From sequence record OR786310.1: a stretch of 64,000 nt of DNA, one strand, 5' to 3'. Origin of the DNA: Escherichia phage ETEC-TG. The notes beneath the pieces were generated by a model. The model searched no databases and was not told the DNA's origin. It worked only from the letters and a program-made list of their open reading frames with translations. Position 1 is the stretch's first letter; the number at the start of each line of letters is the position of its first letter. The translations under genes and the position numbers were made by a program. Positions 8,166 to 40,948 of this stretch are shown one piece after another.

Positions 8166-10418
8166 ATGTCAACTACAATTACTAATTTACCCGAAACATC
8201 AAAAGTTAATGGTTCTGATTACCTGGTTTTAGACCAACCTGATAAGACTGTTAAAAGCACAGTTTCCAACTTTCTTACTGACACTGGGGTGGTTTTAGCC
8301 ACCCAGTTGAAAGATACAGATGGAGCTACCAAGTATCCAGAACTTCAGATTGCACGCTGGCGAGACGAGGGAGATATCAGAGGGTGGGGCACGGAAACAA
8401 ACGGTGATGTTACCGAAGCAATCATTGAGGCGGTAGCGGCGACAAGCGGCACTATCATTGTGCCACCTGGTGACTATGTTGCCACACCTACGCTGGCCGA
8501 AGTTCCGGCTGTGCTGAAATTGCTGTCCCGCGCTGATTTTCGTGGCAGGTTGACCATTAATCTGCCAGCTGGGACGGTCAATCTGAACGAGCAGACAGTC
8601 ATAAATTCTAACAGGAGTAATCTGTGCAAGGTCATTGGCGTAGCGCTAAACACGAGCGTTACAGGGCTTGTTTCTGTAGCTGGGTCAAGCAAGCAATATT
8701 CGATAACTCTGTCCCTGGCAGATGCCTCGCAGGTGTCAGTCGGTGACTATGCCATCTTCAGGCACGATCTGACGGGAACTGGTTTTTTCCACATACACTG
8801 CGGGGGCTGGCGGGTAACGGCTGTGTCCGGCAATAACGTGACCGTGCTCAACACATGCGTCTTGGATTCATTCCCTTCGTCAACCGTTACCGGTGGATCA
8901 GTCTCCATTATCAAGTCCGTTCTGAAATACACCGGCTGTGATGGGATTAGACCGGAGGGCGGCGACTGTATCGGAATTATTGATAATGTCGCCATCGTGG
9001 GTGATTACAACCTTGCTACCGGCGCAGGGACAATCGGTGCTCACGGCGTAATATCCTCAACACCCGTAGTAGTCACCGACGCCGCCAACGCATCCAACAA
9101 CGTAGCGAATATGGCGGCAGCGCTGGCCCTGGGACGAAATATTGCAATCAGTGCCTGGGGTGAGCAAGGGCTGGCAGTGTCGGGTCGCTCTGCGCTTGTG
9201 TGTAACTTCATCGCATCCTGTGCCAACCGTAAGCGTGGTATTTATGCGGAAGGTGCTCATATACGCGGGAAATTTATGATCGCCTCCGGAAACGGAGAGG
9301 ACGGCATTATTTCAGATACCACTGGATTTGTGCAGGCTGCATATGCCGTTTGCTCGGGTAACGGATTAAACGGGTTCTGGTCAACAAACCTCTCTCTTAT
9401 TGCGGCGGCAAGGGGAGTGGCTTGCTGTAACAAAACAAATGGTGTGGAGGCAAGGGGGCAGACAAGGCTCGCATTTGATCTCGGCCTTTCCTACGGAAAC
9501 GTTCTAAACGGTGTCAGCGCCTCTGATGGGGGCATGATTGACTTTGATGGCGGCATGTCAAGAGACAATCTCGTTGACGGGATCGCAGCGACATACAATG
9601 CAGTAGTTGACGCGAACAACGCCTCCAGTACCACCAATGGTCGTTACGGTACTAACGTGACCTCCGCGTGCATTATCATTTCAGGGACTGGTACTATATC
9701 TGGGAATACAGGGGCGGATGTTCGTGATAACGGCAATGGGATGGTTGTCCGACCAGACGGCACGATCTACCCATTCACTGGGGTCGCACAGGGTAATCTG
9801 TCGCTAAGAAACACCGTCAGCGGCGCGGGGGTTGACATTGTTCCTACAAGTATAGGTGACTTAATTCTGAGCTTTAAAAACTCAGCAGGCGGAACGCTTA
9901 ACCCGTTATACAACTTCAAAGCCGACGGTACTCAGTACCCTCAAAATGACGCGACGCAAAGCCTTGGGCGTGCCGCTAACCGATACAATGTCGGTTTCTT
10001 CGCTGGCGGAACACAGTCAACTTCAGATGCCACACTTAAAGACCCTATCCGGGAGTTCAATCAGGCCGAACTTAATGCAGCAATGCGAATCGCAAAAATG
10101 CTGGGTTTCTGGACATGGCTGGATGATGCCGGAAAACGGCTTCATGCAGGGACAACAGTGCAAGCGGTACTGGAGGTGCTGGAAGAAGAGGGACTCGACT
10201 GGCGTAACTATGGTTTCATCGGATTTGATGAGTGGGATGATGAATATATCCCAGTAACCATTGAGGTAGATGGCGAAGTCGTTGAAACAGGGGAAACGAA
10301 ATTAGTGCGTGAGGCTGGTTCTGTCTGGCAACTGCGCGATCAGGAATTTGACCGTTTCGTTATGCGTGGACTTTCTGAAAGGCTGAGTATTATAGAAAGT
10401 AAGCTGGATTTACTGTAA
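8166..10418 (+). CDS. Tailspike protein with beta-helix-like receptor-binding domain (GC-rich, mosaic)
   Basis: 750 aa; AT-rich conserved N-terminus followed by a markedly GC-richer body with Gly/Asn/Ser/Thr-rich repeats typical of pectate-lyase-type beta-helices. Confidence 0.55.
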   Translation: MSTTITNLPETSKVNGSDYLVLDQPDKTVKSTVSNFLTDTGVVLATQLKDTDGATKYPELQIARWRDEGDIRGWGTETNGDVTEAIIEAVAATSGTIIVPPGDYVATPTLAEVPAVLKLLSRADFRGRLTINLPAGTVNLNEQTVINSNRSNLCKVIGVALNTSVTGLVSVAGSSKQYSITLSLADASQVSVGDYAIFRHDLTGTGFFHIHCGGWRVTAVSGNNVTVLNTCVLDSFPSSTVTGGSVSIIKSVLKYTGCDGIRPEGGDCIGIIDNVAIVGDYNLATGAGTIGAHGVISSTPVVVTDAANASNNVANMAAALALGRNIAISAWGEQGLAVSGRSALVCNFIASCANRKRGIYAEGAHIRGKFMIASGNGEDGIISDTTGFVQAAYAVCSGNGLNGFWSTNLSLIAAARGVACCNKTNGVEARGQTRLAFDLGLSYGNVLNGVSASDGGMIDFDGGMSRDNLVDGIAATYNAVVDANNASSTTNGRYGTNVTSACIIISGTGTISGNTGADVRDNGNGMVVRPDGTIYPFTGVAQGNLSLRNTVSGAGVDIVPTSIGDLILSFKNSAGGTLNPLYNFKADGTQYPQNDATQSLGRAANRYNVGFFAGGTQSTSDATLKDPIREFNQAELNAAMRIAKMLGFWTWLDDAGKRLHAGTTVQAVLEVLEEEGLDWRNYGFIGFDEWDDEYIPVTIEVDGEVVETGETKLVREAGSVWQLRDQEFDRFVMRGLSERLSIIESKLDLL

Positions 10419-32231: not shown

Positions 32232-33179
32232 CTACAAACTTTCAATAACCTGGCGTCGCAACTCATTTGCATCTGCCAGATTATAATGTGTTCGAACATG
32301 TTCAGCCAAGAACAAGCCACGATCTTCCCGATAGTTTGGATTGCGAAGAAGCTTAACAATTTCGTAATGCCATTCTGCTTTGTTCTCTGCGTAAGCAACA
32401 GCACGAGCATCTACAGGGTTAAAATAAGGTAATACTTTAGAACAAACAATCGGAATACCTTTTGCTCCAGCTTCCAGGATTTTGAGATTACTTTTACAAT
32501 TATTAAAATCATTATCTACCAAAGGAGCTATAGCAATAGCATGACTTTCGTAAACACTCATGTAATTATCTAAATCTTTTACAGCGGCTTTATATTTGGC
32601 ATTTGGTAAATTTCTGCGAATCTTAATCCATTCTTGTCCCGTGATGCTCTGTGATGCTTCATATCCCGCAATAGTAAGAAGTTCATCATCGAAAGTATTA
32701 GAGACTAGTCGTAAATCTGGTTCGTGACTAGCACCGCCAGCCCATACAACAGGGGTACCGGATGAACGATCATTTGACAAAGTGAATTGTCCACTATCAA
32801 AAGGAAGTGCATTTCGGATCACAACAACATTCCTATTTAAGTGACGGATCTTATATGCCAAATATTCTGTAGTCACAATAACCACATCAGCAAGCTTAAC
32901 CATAGCTACAATAGCATGAGTGTTTGACTCGTATAGATTTGCTAAATAATGTTCTGGATTAAGTTGGTAGAAATCATCTAAATCTACAACAATCTTAACA
33001 CCTTGACGTTTCAAAGATAAAACGTATTCTGCACCTTTAGAGTGGATACGGTTAAACACAACAACATCTTTCTTAGGTTGAAGATTATGGTTGTTAAATG
33101 GCATAACAATACGATGATAGTCACAACCGCTGTGAGGTTTTGCATCAATTTTTAGTTTAGACCATTTTTTATTTGACAT
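32232..33179 (-). CDS. Glycosyltransferase, GT-B fold (paralog 2)
   Basis: 315 aa; KSNLKILEAGAKGIPIVCS; collinear similarity to 31280-32224 product. Confidence 0.5.
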   Translation of the reverse strand: MSNKKWSKLKIDAKPHSGCDYHRIVMPFNNHNLQPKKDVVVFNRIHSKGAEYVLSLKRQGVKIVVDLDDFYQLNPEHYLANLYESNTHAIVAMVKLADVVIVTTEYLAYKIRHLNRNVVVIRNALPFDSGQFTLSNDRSSGTPVVWAGGASHEPDLRLVSNTFDDELLTIAGYEASQSITGQEWIKIRRNLPNAKYKAAVKDLDNYMSVYESHAIAIAPLVDNDFNNCKSNLKILEAGAKGIPIVCSKVLPYFNPVDARAVAYAENKAEWHYEIVKLLRNPNYREDRGLFLAEHVRTHYNLADANELRRQVIESL

Positions 33180-33852
33180 GTGCTAGTGCCTCCTCATAGG
33201 AAATTCGGATTTTCCCATTTTTAATATCCTCTAAAGATGCTTTATATTCTTCCCAGTTAATCCCGATAGCAGCTTCTTTCTCTTCTTTTGTCAGATTAGC
33301 AAAAGGCATAGGATTGTTTCCAAAAACATCGTCTGGGTGGATATAAGCCATGATACGAAGTGGACAAGGTGTTGCCTGAATACCATGATTCAAACCAGCA
33401 GCTTGTAAACGGTGTCCCCATTCAGCATCTTCAAAACCATAACCATGAGTGTAAGGACGGAAATAACCCATCTTCTCAACAACGGCACGAGAATACATTG
33501 CAAATTGACACATTGCAAGTTCCCAGAGAATAACTTCTCCTTTGCTTCCAACAACTTTATCTTTGAAGTACTCCGGCATACCAAAGAAATCCCATCCTCC
33601 AGAAACAGCTTGATCTACAAAGTATGTTTCCCATCCTTCCATGACTGGGTAGCAATCGTCGTCAAAAATAAACCAATAATCATAACCTTCTTCATAAAAC
33701 TGGTGCATAAGTTCATTCCTGGCATAAGCTACACCTTTACGATCTGGATCGTTGAATACTCGAAAATCTGCACGTGGATCTGTTACAAGGTAGTCTTTAA
33801 GTGGACGGACACCTACAGTGATAACACCCACTCCGATTTTAATATTTTCCAT
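33169..33852 (-). CDS. Glycosyltransferase, GT-A fold (DxD)
   Basis: 227 aa; FIFDDDCYP DxD-type motif; Rossmann-like N-terminus IGVGVITVG. Confidence 0.5.
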   Translation of the reverse strand: MENIKIGVGVITVGVRPLKDYLVTDPRADFRVFNDPDRKGVAYARNELMHQFYEEGYDYWFIFDDDCYPVMEGWETYFVDQAVSGGWDFFGMPEYFKDKVVGSKGEVILWELAMCQFAMYSRAVVEKMGYFRPYTHGYGFEDAEWGHRLQAAGLNHGIQATPCPLRIMAYIHPDDVFGNNPMPFANLTKEEKEAAIGINWEEYKASLEDIKNGKIRISYEEALAHVK

Positions 33853-35126: not shown

Positions 35127-35648
35127 TTAACTCCCCTTTGGTAGATAGAAACCATGCACTTTATCTCGATAAACAAGACGCATATCACGTTCCCAGTGTG
35201 TCCTTATATTCCGTTTCTTGAAGTATAGAGCACCTTTAGTAACATCTAAAACAGACCGCAATTCAGGAAAATGTTTCTCTAAATAAAGTAAACGCTCCGC
35301 TATTGCTTTTGCTTCTTGCCACTTATCTTTCTCTGTTACGTTAAAAGTTTTCGCATATGAGAATTGCCCTTTCTGGAACAAGACTCCTCTGACTGTGTTA
35401 GGGAAGTAGGTATCATTTCTTCTGTTGATTACCACATTCCCAACGGCATTCATTCCTTTTTTACCCAGACCTCGACCTTCTGCGTAAATTGCACAAGCTA
35501 ATAGAATTTTATCATTATATTGCTTTGTACATTTGTGAACTACTTTAGCGGTTTTTACGTTTGCAGCTTCGGCTTTCGCCACAACAGGTGTAAATGTAAA
35601 AGCAGTTAAGGATAGTAACGCAACTGTTACAAAGTTTTTTATCAGCAA
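35127..35648 (-). CDS. Secreted cell-wall hydrolase, SleB/CwlJ-like (candidate endolysin)
   Basis: 173 aa; signal peptide (LSLTAFTFTPVVAKA); AVGNVVINRRNDTYFPNTVRGVLFQKGQFS matches SleB-type Hydrolase_2 motif; TTG start with AAGGAGG RBS. Confidence 0.6.
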   Translation of the reverse strand: MLIKNFVTVALLSLTAFTFTPVVAKAEAANVKTAKVVHKCTKQYNDKILLACAIYAEGRGLGKKGMNAVGNVVINRRNDTYFPNTVRGVLFQKGQFSYAKTFNVTEKDKWQEAKAIAERLLYLEKHFPELRSVLDVTKGALYFKKRNIRTHWERDMRLVYRDKVHGFYLPKGS

Positions 35649-35747: not shown

Positions 35748-36350
35748 TTATGGACATTCATACCATTCTTTTTTACCACCGAAGGCCATCACCACATCGC
35801 AAATATCCAGACCAGCTTTACCTACACCATATGCTTTCAGCTTCCATTCCCCATCTTCACGAACCAAGGAAGCCACGTGGCAGATTGTGTTACCAGCTAC
35901 TTCAGGAGCCAGGAAGTCAAAATCCAGAATTTCCACATTGCGTTCGGAGTCAAAGATTTTAAGCATACCTTCAGAAGCATGACCAAAACGTTTCAGACCT
36001 GTATCATCATCAATGGTCAGAACAAAGGCAATCTCTTGTGCATCAGGAGAGATTTTAGCCAGAGTAATATCAATCTGCTCCATGCTGCCAGTCCCATCAC
36101 GAACATCGTCACCAGCGAAGGTAGAACGTTCAGGATCAAACTTGTTAGCGTAGCAAACCAGATGACGTGCAGACAGCATTTCAGGATTGCCAGCGGCATT
36201 ATGACGACAAACCAGTGCACTTACATCCAGATCCAGTTTAGAATCAGATTTCCAAGAGAATTCCAGGCGCAGTTCTTTCAGAGCCGGAGCAACTTTCTTC
36301 AGGGAAATTTTTTCGCTAGAGCCTTTTTTCAGGGAAATTTTATCAGTCAT
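35748..36350 (-). CDS. terD: TerD-family stress-response protein
   Basis: 200 aa; duplicated N-terminal EKISLKK strand; length and composition typical of TerD/TerE/TerZ family; GAGGAGA RBS. Confidence 0.65.
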   Translation of the reverse strand: MTDKISLKKGSSEKISLKKVAPALKELRLEFSWKSDSKLDLDVSALVCRHNAAGNPEMLSARHLVCYANKFDPERSTFAGDDVRDGTGSMEQIDITLAKISPDAQEIAFVLTIDDDTGLKRFGHASEGMLKIFDSERNVEILDFDFLAPEVAGNTICHVASLVREDGEWKLKAYGVGKAGLDICDVVMAFGGKKEWYECP

Positions 36351-36365
36351 CTTTTGTCTCCTCTA

Positions 36366-36635
36366 TTATTTAAGTGTAATACCAGTTACAGTCAATTCTA
36401 CTTCCAAAAGCTTAGATGTGTTTTGGATTGATACTAATTGTGCATGATGGTTTAGTTCTACAGCGGAATAATCATTCTCCCCATCGTCTACTTTTAAATA
36501 AACAATGATTTCACTAAGGTCTAAACCATTTTCGTCAAATGCATTTTCATAGACGAAAGTATCTCCTACATCCAAATCTTTAATGGTAAGGCATCGTTTA
36601 TTTACTTTTTGCTCATCAATTTCGAAGTTTAACAC
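36366..36635 (-). CDS. Small protein, paralog A of the DLDVG family
   Basis: 89 aa; DLDVGDTFVYENAFDENGLD ... EVELTVTGITLK; paralogous to 37657-37935. Confidence 0.5.
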   Translation of the reverse strand: MLNFEIDEQKVNKRCLTIKDLDVGDTFVYENAFDENGLDLSEIIVYLKVDDGENDYSAVELNHHAQLVSIQNTSKLLEVELTVTGITLK

Positions 36636-36864
36636 TTCTTCCTCCTAATGTTATCTCCGGTTTGTATATACGAAGAATTATAGCATTTTCATTTTCTTTG
36701 TCAACCCATTCTTCATAATCGGGCCATACATGAATCTCTACTCTACTTACAATATCTTCCATTCGCACAGTCCCAATGAAATACTCTTTGAGACTGCGCA
36801 TAATGAAAGCTTCTCTCTCGCGCCAATAATTTTCTACGACTTGAGAGGCAAGCTCGTCGATCAT
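36616..36864 (-). CDS. Hypothetical protein
   Basis: 82 aa. Confidence 0.4.
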   Translation of the reverse strand: MIDELASQVVENYWREREAFIMRSLKEYFIGTVRMEDIVSRVEIHVWPDYEEWVDKENENAIILRIYKPEITLGGRSVKLRN

Positions 36865-37655
36865 TTTTTAGCACCTACTTTAACAACCCACTCTCCGAAC
36901 TCTTCAGATAAAAGTTTGTCATAAAGCTCTGAATCTGTCAAGTCTAAATCTTTAATGCCAATAAAACCAACATTATCATAAGCATTTGCCAGTTCTTTCA
37001 GGAAGCCAAACTTCTCATTACCAACGCCAACCATGAACCAATAAATAGGTTTATTCTTATTCTCTTCAATAAGACGACGAACAGCACTAGGATCACCATT
37101 CTCACCATCCGTCTGGAAGAATACAACACCAGGGGTAACGTCAGCACCTGGTTCAGATACAGCTACAACTTTTTCACGCTCTACAGACACTGTTTCAGTT
37201 TTACCAAGCAGACGATTAAAGAAGCCTTTCTTTGGAGCCTCCTCTTGTACCACTTGTTTAGTGGTAATATATTTGGTAACAGTGCCAAAATACTCATCGT
37301 AGATATCTGCCATTACAGGGGCGTAATTTGTTCCACCTCCGATACGAACATTGCGCATACATTTACCAACATAGTCATCGTAAACGTCTGCTGTTGCTGG
37401 AGTAAGCTCTTGGGAACTCGTATTAAAGGCCCACATATCAATTTGTTGATTATCGTCGAACAGCATACCAAAAGGAAGCAGTTTACCTACAAAATCACTC
37501 ACTACCCCACTAGAATATAGACCATGCATACTACCAGAAATATCTAGAGCACATGCTACACGAAGAACAATCTTACCTTCATTCAGGTTCTTATTCTTTT
37601 TCAGAGAGAAAGCAAGGTTTTCTTGACGTTTTTTCAGGCTGATTTTCTCGGACAT
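36861..37655 (-). CDS. von Willebrand factor A (vWA) domain protein, TerY-like
   Basis: 264 aa; MIDAS DISGSM plus GGTN; N-terminal MSEKISLKK shared with TerD; AAGGAG RBS. Confidence 0.6.
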   Translation of the reverse strand: MSEKISLKKRQENLAFSLKKNKNLNEGKIVLRVACALDISGSMHGLYSSGVVSDFVGKLLPFGMLFDDNQQIDMWAFNTSSQELTPATADVYDDYVGKCMRNVRIGGGTNYAPVMADIYDEYFGTVTKYITTKQVVQEEAPKKGFFNRLLGKTETVSVEREKVVAVSEPGADVTPGVVFFQTDGENGDPSAVRRLIEENKNKPIYWFMVGVGNEKFGFLKELANAYDNVGFIGIKDLDLTDSELYDKLLSEEFGEWVVKVGAKK

Positions 37656-37656
37656 A

Positions 37657-37935
37657 TTATTTCTCCTTCTTAAGTGTAATATTGGTAACTTCTAAATCTA
37701 CTTCCACCATATTTGTATCTGGTGGGATGCAATGAGTATAGCCTCGTTGTGCTAGTGATCCATTAATACAAATCGCACTGTTTGTGGAATTTTTAATGAA
37801 CACCAAGTTATGGTAGGTATCCAACCCTGCGTCTTTATAGGCATCATAATACATGAATGTGGCCCCTACGTCAAGATCTTCGAAAGCAATAGGTAAATCC
37901 TGACTTTTTTCTTCTTGAATATTGAATCTAAACAT
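37657..37935 (-). CDS. Small protein, paralog B of the DLDVG family
   Basis: Start moved to ATG with GAGGAGG RBS; DLDVGATFMYYDAYKDAGLD ... EVDLEVTNITLK. Confidence 0.5.
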   Translation of the reverse strand: MFRFNIQEEKSQDLPIAFEDLDVGATFMYYDAYKDAGLDTYHNLVFIKNSTNSAICINGSLAQRGYTHCIPPDTNMVEVDLEVTNITLKKEK

Positions 37936-39055: not shown

Positions 39056-39252
39056 TACTCCTCCTCCTCATTGAAGTCAATATCTGCAAGGAGTTCGAAT
39101 TTACGGAAGTTACGACAACCTTCATAAATATAACAATCACGACAAACTGCTAGAACACTTGGGGGATATATGCCTCCCATCGGTGCGAATCGTTTTTCGT
39201 CATCATAACGGACACCAATGTCTTCATCAATTATATAGATACGGATTCTCAT
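39055..39252 (-). CDS. Small Cys-containing protein
   Basis: 65 aa; CRDC ... C; acidic C-terminus. Confidence 0.35.
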   Translation of the reverse strand: MRIRIYIIDEDIGVRYDDEKRFAPMGGIYPPSVLAVCRDCYIYEGCRNFRKFELLADIDFNEEEE

Positions 39253-40361
39253 TTACCAAGCCCTCGTTTCACAGCAGCTACCATCCCGTCTTCCAGAGAT
39301 TGAACTTCATTAATATAATCAACACGAGCAGCACGGGCTTCCGTATTGATGCGGTTAGTTTCTTCCAGCATCTTAACCAAGTTTTCCTGATCGTGACGCA
39401 GAGTTTCAATATCCAACACTTGACGGTTAGCCAGTGCTGCTGCTTCGATCTGATTCTGTGTGGCAAGATCGCTACCCAGTTTAATTGCCAGGTTAAATTC
39501 ATCAAGAACGTTATTCTGCGTCTCTGCTGCTTTCATTTGACGTAAGCTCTCGATATACATTGAGAAGTTAGCAGAGTAAGCAGGAATAACATTATTTACT
39601 ATGTTACGCGCAGATCGCATTAAGCTTGCAGAAACTTTTTGCATACCTTGTACACGCGGTCCCATTTGGACACACAGTAGGCGCAATGCTTTTAAATCTG
39701 CAATACGAATCTCCAGAAGATCCAAAGTATCTCGGATCACTTGTCGCTGTTCTACTGCATCTTCTGGAAGAGCAGCCAAAGCTTGTTCTTCTTTTTCATA
39801 GGTTGCTGTTAGAAGCTGCATATCTCGGTTCAAACTTGCAGCATATTGTCCAATAGCTTGATGTAGCTTTTCAAGATATACCAAGGAATCTTCTTCTTTG
39901 CGAATATCCATTTGAAGGTTCTTTACCAACTCTTCAATACGGTTATTAACATTATCAAACTCCCCGAACAGGTCTTCTTTCATACCCATAACTTTTTTAA
40001 TGAGTTTAGTAATACCCTTGCTTTGTTTAATAGAGTTTGGATCAAGTTGTTTTGCCTGTTTAATCAAAGCTGTAAGTCGTTCACTCATCTGATCGCCTTG
40101 ATTACTACGTTGATGTTTTAACACCTCGGCATTCAAGGAACGCAAGGTTGTTCCTGCCTCTGCCCCAATCTCTTCAATCTCTTGTCGGGTCATAGAAGGC
40201 AAAACTGGAACTTCTTGCGGTGCCGCTGGTGCATAAACAGGACTGGCATCTAACACGCTTGGAGCGAATACAGATTTACTTGCATCTGTTGTTGCAGCGA
40301 ATACACTCATTTCAGACTTCTTCTGACCACCAGTAGCTGCTTTTAAAAATGGACTTGTCAT
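39249..40361 (-). CDS. TelA-like (toxic anion resistance family) coiled-coil protein
   Basis: 370 aa, predominantly alpha-helical/coiled-coil with TelA-like length and composition; located with TerC/TerD/vWA genes. Assignment by resemblance and context only. Confidence 0.45.
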   Translation of the reverse strand: MTSPFLKAATGGQKKSEMSVFAATTDASKSVFAPSVLDASPVYAPAAPQEVPVLPSMTRQEIEEIGAEAGTTLRSLNAEVLKHQRSNQGDQMSERLTALIKQAKQLDPNSIKQSKGITKLIKKVMGMKEDLFGEFDNVNNRIEELVKNLQMDIRKEEDSLVYLEKLHQAIGQYAASLNRDMQLLTATYEKEEQALAALPEDAVEQRQVIRDTLDLLEIRIADLKALRLLCVQMGPRVQGMQKVSASLMRSARNIVNNVIPAYSANFSMYIESLRQMKAAETQNNVLDEFNLAIKLGSDLATQNQIEAAALANRQVLDIETLRHDQENLVKMLEETNRINTEARAARVDYINEVQSLEDGMVAAVKRGLGK

Positions 40362-40948
40362 TCTTCATTCTCCTCTTCTGCATCTCTTATATATGGTGAA
40401 ACACCGTACTCTTTAGCTACTTTAACCCAATCATCCCATTTATACAACCATAATTTTCCTTCAGTTCCTTCTTTATCTGATTTCAACCACATGTTAGGTT
40501 GCTTGCCTGGGTACATGCGATTAGGTTTACGATTATAACCTCTAACACATCTTGTCGCAAACCTATCTACCAGAACAAGAACATATTTATACTCGTGGTT
40601 CAACGGCTCTTTGGAAGTGGCTTTAGGATTAGCCCCTAACTCTGCTGCCAGTTTTTGCCAATGAGCACCGTGCCTACTAAACTTACCCATACAACCATCA
40701 ATAGCGTGAGCAATTTCGTGCTTCATTGTATCCACGATCATATCTCTTGTAGAGTTCTTATGCAAGTGCCAATTTACAACAACAATTTTATCTCGGTAGT
40801 TGCACCAACCGAAAGAGTTATTCACTTTGTTTCTAACACAAGCTTTATATCCTGCTTCACGTAACATGTTGTAGTAAACAGGAAAATCTTCTTTTATTTC
40901 CTGCATCACTTCCCACCACAAGAGTTGCAAGTCTCTCTCGGTATGCAT
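40358..40948 (-). CDS. SprT-like zinc metallopeptidase domain protein
   Basis: 196 aa; HEIAH (HExxH) preceded by FGWCNY region typical of SprT-like domains. Confidence 0.55.
   Translation of the reverse strand: MHTERDLQLLWWEVMQEIKEDFPVYYNMLREAGYKACVRNKVNNSFGWCNYRDKIVVVNWHLHKNSTRDMIVDTMKHEIAHAIDGCMGKFSRHGAHWQKLAAELGANPKATSKEPLNHEYKYVLVLVDRFATRCVRGYNRKPNRMYPGKQPNMWLKSDKEGTEGKLWLYKWDDWVKVAKEYGVSPYIRDAEEENEE

Follow-up and report, generated by a model that had tools for sequence, protein, structure and literature searches.

Virulence plasmids, genomic islands and phages widely carry Ter gene clusters. Abbreviated Ter modules have been described in phages (Iyer, Anantharaman, Krishnan, Burroughs and Aravind, 2021; PMC7824862), and that article proposes sub-membrane structures, formed by TelA and the TerF vWA protein and directed against superinfecting phages. 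Here we analyzed 64,000 nucleotides (64 kb, hereafter the window) of Escherichia phage ETEC-TG (sequence record OR786310.1), a phAPEC8-like Escherichia coli myovirus (Phapecoctavirus), in which one short peptide opens both a TerD-domain protein and a TerF-type vWA protein. This peptide contains a five-residue unit, hydrophobic-x-Leu-x-Lys (hxLxK), which is built into both the TerD and the TerF-type vWA families. Across lineages, the units in TerD co-vary at the protein level with those in the vWA protein encoded next to it.

The phage TerD shares its Pfam domain and its length with the classical ter-operon proteins TerD, TerE and TerZ (structures have been solved for Klebsiella, 2KXT/2KXV, and for Streptomyces, 3IBZ), and its start, ISLKKGSSEKISLKKVAP, has the hxLxK-turn-hxLxK-x-A-P layout of the TerD family, as does the classical start, VSLSKGGNVSLSKTAP. 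It differs from the bacterial proteins in overall sequence (31–35% identity or less), in a hairpin loop two residues longer, in an acidic segment that reads GDDVRDGTGSMEQ as against GDNRTGEGDGDDE in Klebsiella TerD, and in being phage-encoded; no TerA, TerB, TerC membrane protein or PRTase/HAD enzyme (the proposed makers of a nucleotide signal in Ter systems) was found among the 16 open reading frames (ORFs) scanned between 32.2 and 41.5 kb of the window. The phage vWA protein belongs to the same metal ion-dependent adhesion site (MIDAS) vWA subfamily as TerF-type proteins, which combine TerD with a C-terminal vWA domain (PF10138, “vWA found in TerF C terminus”) and carry units immediately ahead of the latter. 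In the phage, however, TerD and vWA are encoded separately and two small genes intervene, whereas the units of the fusions are internal.

As in the Ter modules of phages covered by the accessible parts of PMC7824862 and of a preprint on Klebsiella phage phiKp34 (10.1101/2021.03.02.433402), TerD, a TerF-type vWA protein and TelA occur together in a virulent phage. Those parts describe jumbo phages and phiKp34, and contain no mention of a phAPEC8-like coliphage, of shared N-terminal units or of their co-variation. The TelA–vWA–TerD module of phages has already been described, and TerD, vWA and TelA of the window are ordinary members of their families. The literature searched appears to contain no description of the N-terminal element conserved in the vWA family or of its co-variation with the TerD start, although Anantharaman et al. 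(2012) may already have noted them.

Identical Peptides at the Starts of Two Ter Proteins

The TerD gene (35748..36350, minus strand, 200 aa; PF02342, 98.9 bits against a cut-off of 25.3) and the vWA gene (36861..37655, minus strand, 264 aa; PF10138, 130.1 bits against a cut-off of 29.4) encode proteins beginning with MTDKISLKKGSSEKISLKK and MSEKISLKKRQENLAFSLKK, respectively. The EKISLKK that the original prediction had read at both N-termini is thus present in both ORF translations. The hexapeptide KISLKK occurs three times in the six-frame translation of the 64 kb, each time inside the TerD or vWA gene. When the unit was relaxed to [ILVF][SDNT]LxK and sought in 126 ORFs, it was found elsewhere only at the C-terminus of one small neighboring protein and in two probably non-coding ORFs. 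Because KISLKK is confined to two genes and the loose unit hardly occurs in the other 124 ORFs, the motif is not a generic feature of unrelated proteins in this genome.

Both proteins carry the unit twice. In TerD, ISLKK occupies residues 5–9 (36324..36338, minus strand) and again residues 15–19 (36294..36308, minus strand). In the vWA protein, ISLKK at residues 5–9 (37629..37643, minus strand) is followed by a second unit, FSLKK, at residues 16–20 (37596..37610, minus strand), which the original prediction had overlooked, so that the complete N-terminal element reads ISLKK-RQENLA-FSLKK.

The Two-Unit Start Is Canonical for TerD Domains

Residues 5–179 of the phage TerD align with positions 3–177 of the 187-position PF02342 profile, and the protein matches the solved TerD structures 2KXT (E = 1.5e-15) and 3IBZ (E = 2.9e-14) over nearly its full length. 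Its AlphaFold2 (AF2) model (mean predicted local distance difference test [pLDDT] score 88.6) is mostly beta, with 13 strands; unit 1 falls in predicted strand beta1 (E5–7), and unit 2 in predicted strand beta2 (E14–16) and a short turn (H17–20). Klebsiella TerD starts with VSLSKGGNVSLSK, and its VSLSKGG-NVSLSK, together with the VSLSKGG-NVSLTK of Streptomyces TerD, aligns column for column with the phage ISLKKGSSEKISLKK. The alignment to solved TerDs and the predicted strands agree that the motif is the first beta-strand of TerD, a check that the original prediction had proposed. L7, K9, L17, K19, P22 and L24 were invariant in an alignment of 17 TerD relatives, and both units were kept in all phage TerD relatives examined, down to 31% identity. 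Bacterial TerD neighbors have both as well (INLTK...INLTK in Neobacillus, INLKK...INLTK in Accumulibacter), as do the classical TerZ, TerD and TerE on a Pseudomonas megaplasmid.

A direct DNA repeat in TerD with copies about 30 nt apart had been reported from the letters alone and read as a duplication inside the gene. The repeat is there: the 64 kb contain exactly two copies of the 13-mer TCAGGGAAATTTT, at 36299..36311 (the coding image of unit 2) and 36329..36341 (the coding image of unit 1), 30 nt apart, against a chance expectation of 0.2 matches, and two or more matches arose in 3 of 100 shuffles. The two copies of the peptide therefore stand, but a duplication event in this phage does not, since all relatives have both units and codon identity between them is at expectation (26/46 identical codons vs. 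26.3 expected over 12 lineages of the first locus set described below). Four of the five codons of units 1 and 2 are identical in the window, where the chance of identical K-I-S-L codons under this gene's usage is 0.13; the DNA repeat exists because a peptide repeat is coded in a gene with strong codon bias. The two-unit start is the canonical start of every TerD domain and not a recent duplication.

Two further features of TerD were recorded. Its codon usage is unlike that of its neighbors, with CTG serving as 17 of the 19 Leu codons (16% in the window's long ORFs) and a GC content of 44% compared with 40% in the vWA gene; very high expression or a different origin might account for this. The acidic 13-residue segment GDDVRDGTGSMEQ lies at residues 80–92 (36075–36113) and aligns with the Klebsiella segment GDNRTGEGDGDDE. 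Within the phage clade D82, D85, G88 and E91 are invariant and the DGDDE acidic run is lost, and distant TerD relatives (P0086 and P0087) retain the canonical acidic motif. In the structure paper on Klebsiella TerD, the acidic GDN(R/L)TG(E/A)GDGDDE segment is reportedly a calcium-binding motif, and metal binding by the phage-clade TerD may be altered.

A Conserved Element Ahead of the vWA Domain

Among 27 vWA relatives, down to 28% identity, the unit residues are conserved as strongly as those of the MIDAS motif: K9 is invariant, with conservation of at least 90% at L7, L18 and K20, whilst in the MIDAS motif DISGS (residues 38–42, after strand beta1 of the vWA fold; 37530..37544, minus strand) D38 and S42 are invariant and S40 is at least 90% conserved. 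A profile search of 1.84 billion representative proteins yielded 2,274 members of the vWA family. Among the 134 top-ranking representatives in which a MIDAS could be anchored, 119 had the bipartite pattern hxhx[KR]-spacer-hxhx[KR] within 45 residues upstream of it, vs. 15 of 750 control windows. Spacers of 6 or 3 residues predominate, the element ends 14–15 residues before the MIDAS Asp, and some vWA lineages have three or four units. The PF10138 model begins at residue 31 of the phage protein, which places the element outside the curated domain.

The AF2 model of the vWA protein (mean pLDDT 91.6) consists of a single vWA domain plus a 30-residue extension, and metal binding is predicted from the MIDAS motif. 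Hydrophobic-moment analysis of the N-terminal element gave no clear periodicity at 100 or 160–180 degrees. A comparison of the protein sequence with solved structures produced no match. A Foldseek search with the model returned vWA and I domains (probability 1.00), the best being copine BON1, integrin I domains and the RGLG2 VWA. The vWA of Arabidopsis BON1 (PDB 6KXK), a copine of C2-C2-vWA architecture, was the joint-best match, tied with the integrin alpha1 I domain at E = 1.9e-6 and with a TM-score of only about 0.53; several vWA relatives also gave weak Copine (PF07002) matches. This copine-type fold match fits an architecture that pairs a beta-sandwich domain with this vWA type. We regard it as an architectural analogy and not as membership: the phage vWA protein has no C2 domain, and TerD belongs to a different fold family.

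Outside the N-terminal element, the vWA proteins of the window clade and of several other clades have a mid-domain insertion that carries a G[FL][FL]xKLFG motif (GFFNRLLG here, residues 144–151, 37203–37226). In a clade of Met-type vWA proteins (L019, L025 and L064) the insertion is missing and the motif stands at the extreme N-terminus (MGLFDKLFGKK…). That it changes position with its sequence kept suggests an autonomous function, possibly as an amphipathic membrane-binding peptide.

TerD and vWA Units Co-Vary Between Lineages

Loci around vWA relatives were drawn from viral, genomic and metagenomic collections, and units were taken from fixed hidden Markov model columns. In the first set, made up of 82 loci and the window itself, 77 of 83 sources had TerD beside the vWA gene on the same strand; over all sets the figure was 119 of 189, with shorter flanks in the sets added later. 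Where the spelling of the unit changes between lineages, TerD and vWA tend to show it together. The ISLKK of both proteins in the window clade corresponds to VSLKK in both proteins of L007, each of which starts MAKVSLKK, and to LNLEK/LSLKK (TerD) and LNLQK/LSLKK (vWA) in L185. L053 has LSLEK in TerD and LNLEK in vWA, Neobacillus (L001) INLTK and IDLTK, and Accumulibacter (L094) INLKK and IDLKK. The conserved Leu is replaced by Met in both proteins of one clade of 59 loci (TerD INMSK/ISMTK, vWA IDMSK/IDMTK) and by Val/Ile in both proteins of L177/L178 (for L177, TerD LSVEK/INIQK and vWA LSVEK/LAIEK). At this position none of 99 loci was discordant between TerD and vWA.

Comparison with shuffled pairings gave the same picture. 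For unit 1 against unit 1 in the first set, 32 identities were counted over 12 lineages vs. 20.0 after shuffling (p < 1e-4), and 21 vs. 13.6 over 8 deep lineages (p = 2e-4); the free position matched in 7 of the 12 lineages, where 1.85 matches were expected. A first replication set of 4 new lineages gave p = 0.08 and was then enlarged by contig look-ups. In the resulting 10 lineages, made up solely of later-fetched loci, identities again exceeded the shuffled values for unit 1 (27 vs. 17.0, p = 0.0012), unit 2 (22 vs. 14.7, p = 6e-4) and all unit pairs (94 vs. 62.5, p = 1e-4). Pooling all 22 lineages gave p ≤ 5e-5, and deep clustering of the pooled set into 10 lineages p = 1e-4.

The resemblance could still be a coincidence of two family consensuses, each kept for structural reasons of its own, with shared ancestry and composition producing apparent co-variation and with no functional coupling between the proteins. 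An excess statistic computed for all 48,165 four-column TerD-by-vWA window pairs ranked the unit windows first (z = 10.7 and 8.7). This speaks against an effect of composition, as shared composition or phylogeny gives no such signal elsewhere in the two proteins. Several separate changes are moreover parallel in the two proteins: Leu gives way to Met or to Val/Ile, Ile at position 1 to Val or to Leu, and the free position varies among K, T, E and S. The deep-lineage tests still return p of about 1e-4. The evidence that speaks for coincidence is taken up below, together with the points that weigh against a functional link.

The vWA-TerF-like gene at L184 (5001–5657; P0057) has no TerD within 5 kb. 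Its second unit is degenerate (…VDLVKAITAQ…) and its MIDAS non-canonical (DISLS), a single case that fits the idea that units are kept for the sake of TerD.

DNA-Level Evidence on the Origin of the Similarity

The original prediction had offered, as one explanation, a recent recombination that moved the N-terminus of TerD to the vWA gene. Such an event in this phage lineage, copying the TerD start to vWA and doubling it within TerD, would account for the exact 7- to 8-residue identity, (S)EKISLKK, and for the exact 13-nt repeat inside TerD. It would also suit the small genes directly upstream of TerD (36366..36635, minus strand, 89 aa) and of vWA (37657..37935, minus strand, 92 aa, its stop codon 1 nt from the vWA start), whose products are paralogs (BLASTP 34% identity, E = 1e-13; both phrog_11278, function unknown) and whose junctions with the following genes are alike. 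The codons do not agree with it. KISLKK is written AAA ATT TCC CTG AAA AAA in TerD and AAA ATC AGC CTG AAA AAA in the vWA gene, and no single substitution interconverts the Ser codons TCC and AGC. Both elements are, besides, conserved in bacteria and phages to 28–35% identity, and over 12 lineages the residues identical between TerD unit 1 and vWA unit 1 used the same codon in 21 of 44 cases vs. 24.8 expected. The junctions resemble each other in DNA because of the paralogous small genes upstream, a generic ribosome-binding site and the coded peptide, and their synonymous sites differ; the paralogs, just 34% identical, are confined to the closest relatives, whereas every lineage has the units. 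Differing codons and family-wide conservation refute a recent transfer, and we give this explanation practically no weight.

Nearly as improbable, in our judgement, is a shared constraint on translation initiation, by which an A-rich, weakly structured start favors expression and the likeness of the proteins is a by-product. Both genes do have AAA-rich first codons after a strong AGGAG ribosome-binding site, but the same pattern recurs in the second units (codons 15–20) and in the internal units of fusions, amino acids are kept while synonymous codons differ, and the units are conserved with other codons in GC-rich bacteria (L094 and L113).

A third possibility is an ancient common origin with occasional gene conversion, in which the vWA extension is a relic of the TerD hairpin, acquired via fusion and fission of TerF-type proteins, and rare DNA exchange between the adjacent genes would keep the units similar even if no common binding site existed. 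The TerD–vWA fusions bear on it directly. Their hxLxK units are located between the two domains and are often preceded by a TerD-start-like piece with K-x-A-P-x-L; just ahead of the vWA domain this segment reads ISLSKQRLISLEKTAPPKL in P0062, LVLKKAPQL in P0218 and ISLEKKVAAAAPQL in a fusion on a Pseudomonas plasmid. An alignment of the two N-termini by hhalign (E = 3.7e-4 in a single comparison) and the identity of four of five unit-1 codons in L177 point the same way. The lack of a shared-codon excess, with Ser often drawn from different codon boxes, means that any conversion must be old in every lineage, and the match at the amino-acid level would still need selection. Common origin would explain where the similarity came from and not how it is maintained; it is compatible with the functional reading given below, and we judge it improbable as a full account. 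Co-variation at the protein level without codon sharing indicates that selection keeps the units alike.

Some of these fusions, namely that at 9001–10260 of L179 (on the P. aeruginosa megaplasmid NZ_CP029096.1) and P0059–P0061, have three canonical units and a K-x-A-P-x-L-like piece between the TerD and vWA domains, and their own TerD start is sometimes degenerate (MQISQGQRIPLSNL). P0158 has the reversed domain order, vWA then TerD.

A Putative Common Binding Site for TerD and vWA Units

The reading that we prefer, held with a little more confidence than doubt, is that one common binding site would read both the TerD and the vWA units and thereby couple the two proteins. The recognized features would be, in TerD, the two units that form the first two strands of every TerD domain and, in the vWA protein, the two units (three or four in some lineages) of the conserved extension ahead of the MIDAS strand. 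The reading site may belong to either of the two proteins or to a partner common to both, for which TelA is the obvious candidate because it adjoins vWA and TerD in the window and also in L002, L180, L181, L182, L185, L188 and L189. TerD and the vWA protein would then be coupled into one assembly, and the identity of EKISLKK in this phage would be the local state of a shared code. Such a coupling agrees with the proposal of PMC7824862, by which the role of the complex may be that of a sub-membrane Ter assembly used by the phage in the course of infection.

Several observations weigh against this coupling. AF2 makes residues 7–20 of the vWA protein an alpha-helix (H7–20, pLDDT 81–93), whereas the TerD units are beta-strands, so that a single site reading both would need a conformational change, or else the monomer model would have to be wrong. 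The hhalign probability for the two N-termini is 36%, too weak for homology to be claimed from profile–profile comparison, and that candidate relationship was set aside. Matching of units within fusion proteins, where the start of translation has no influence, could be assessed in only 5 usable cases (p = 0.33). The shuffles ignore the tree, and an ancestral chance match that passes to descendants inflates the co-variation statistic; under the strictest clustering 3 wholly new lineages are left, and replication in those was not significant. There are also counter-examples, L189 (LNLEK/LDLKK against VSLKK/FSLAK), L113 and L107. The differing secondary structures (TerD beta-hairpin, vWA helix), the low hhalign probability, the treeless shuffles with the non-significant replication at n = 3 and the counter-examples are equally what coincidence of two family consensuses would lead one to expect. 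Set against the first rank of the unit windows and the parallel changes, they leave coincidence unlikely, if still to be taken seriously.

The original prediction had spoken of a shared N-terminal strand used for co-assembly. That idea receives indirect support from the co-variation of the units, in the broader form of a shared recognition element; on the vWA side AF2 predicts a helix in place of the strand.

We also considered a more specific version of the common-site reading, which we put forward tentatively and think unlikely as it stands. The hxLxK units would be exchangeable connectors that fit a common acceptor groove, by strand swap or in a donor-strand-like manner, and build a mixed sub-membrane lattice with TelA. 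Under this connector model the spelling of a lineage (Leu, Met or Val/Ile type, plus the free position) would serve as a specificity code and would prevent the Ter module of a phage from mixing with Ter proteins of its host or of a rival element, and the vWA copy would behave as a chameleon, forming a helix while on its own domain and adopting an extended shape on engagement.

Gene Context of the TelA–vWA–TerD Module

The window genes are an ordinary TelA–vWA–TerD module of a phAPEC8-like coliphage. Across 2.4 kb around the shared-peptide genes, identity to Escherichia phage dw-ec is 99.6%, and 64 phage records cover at least 80% of that stretch; public annotations of these genes in the phage group are hypothetical, “general stress protein,” “tellurium resistance protein” and “VWA domain-containing protein.” TerD, the TerF-type vWA gene (copine-like) and TelA are co-located within 35.7–40.4 kb on one strand. 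First in transcription order is a SprT-like metallopeptidase gene (40358–40948, minus strand), which overlaps the start of TelA by 4 nt. The third module member, a TelA-family protein of 370 aa (39249..40361, minus strand; PF05816, 115.7 bits; phrog_5890, “tellurite resistance”), follows, and then come several small minus-strand genes, the gene for the 92-aa protein and the vWA gene. A gene for an 82-aa protein (36616–36864, minus strand) lies between vWA and the 89-aa gene that precedes TerD, and directly downstream of TerD is a cell-wall hydrolase gene (Hydrolase_2; 35127..35648, minus strand; PF07486, 64.1 bits).

The order TelA–(small genes)–vWA–TerD–Hydrolase_2 is kept across divergent phage lineages (L002, L180, L185, L188 and L189), and the hydrolase may be a functional part of the module. 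TerC and/or PRTases are present in the related loci L001, L180, L182 and L188. Most lineages beyond the closest relatives have vWA followed directly by TerD, and the 36366–36635 gene is probably a lineage-specific insert outside the core module. Both small paralogs end in a unit-like C-terminus (…VTGITLK* and …VTNITLKKEK*). We rejected ITLK(K) as a third copy of the unit; it occurs in the closest relatives only and is not strictly kept there (IKLK, ITLT).

Two adjacent ORFs farther along the window (32232–33852, minus strand) gave glycosyltransferase matches below curated cut-offs (Glyco_trans_1_4, 22.8 bits; TET-associated glycosyltransferase, 19.5 bits) and may act in DNA or surface modification. 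Three public records are near-identical to this coliphage under other names: L103 (JAEZZU010000159.1), a metagenome-assembled genome contig filed as “Proteobacteria bacterium” and essentially identical; P0077, a TerD protein of a “Xanthomonadaceae bacterium”; and H8 (OP562383.1), an “Acinetobacter phage” with 99.1% identity. These labels are probably binning or host-label errors.

Implications for Ter Systems

For this window, the N-terminal “tag” did not arise as the scar of a recombination or by recent duplication. More broadly, a five-residue unit that lies outside the curated vWA model tracks the TerD unit in phages and bacteria, and so provides a sequence handle on Ter proteins. If the units are a shared docking element, a TerD–vWA(–TelA) assembly would become directly testable, and shared docking would explain the spare units between the domains of TerF-type fusions.

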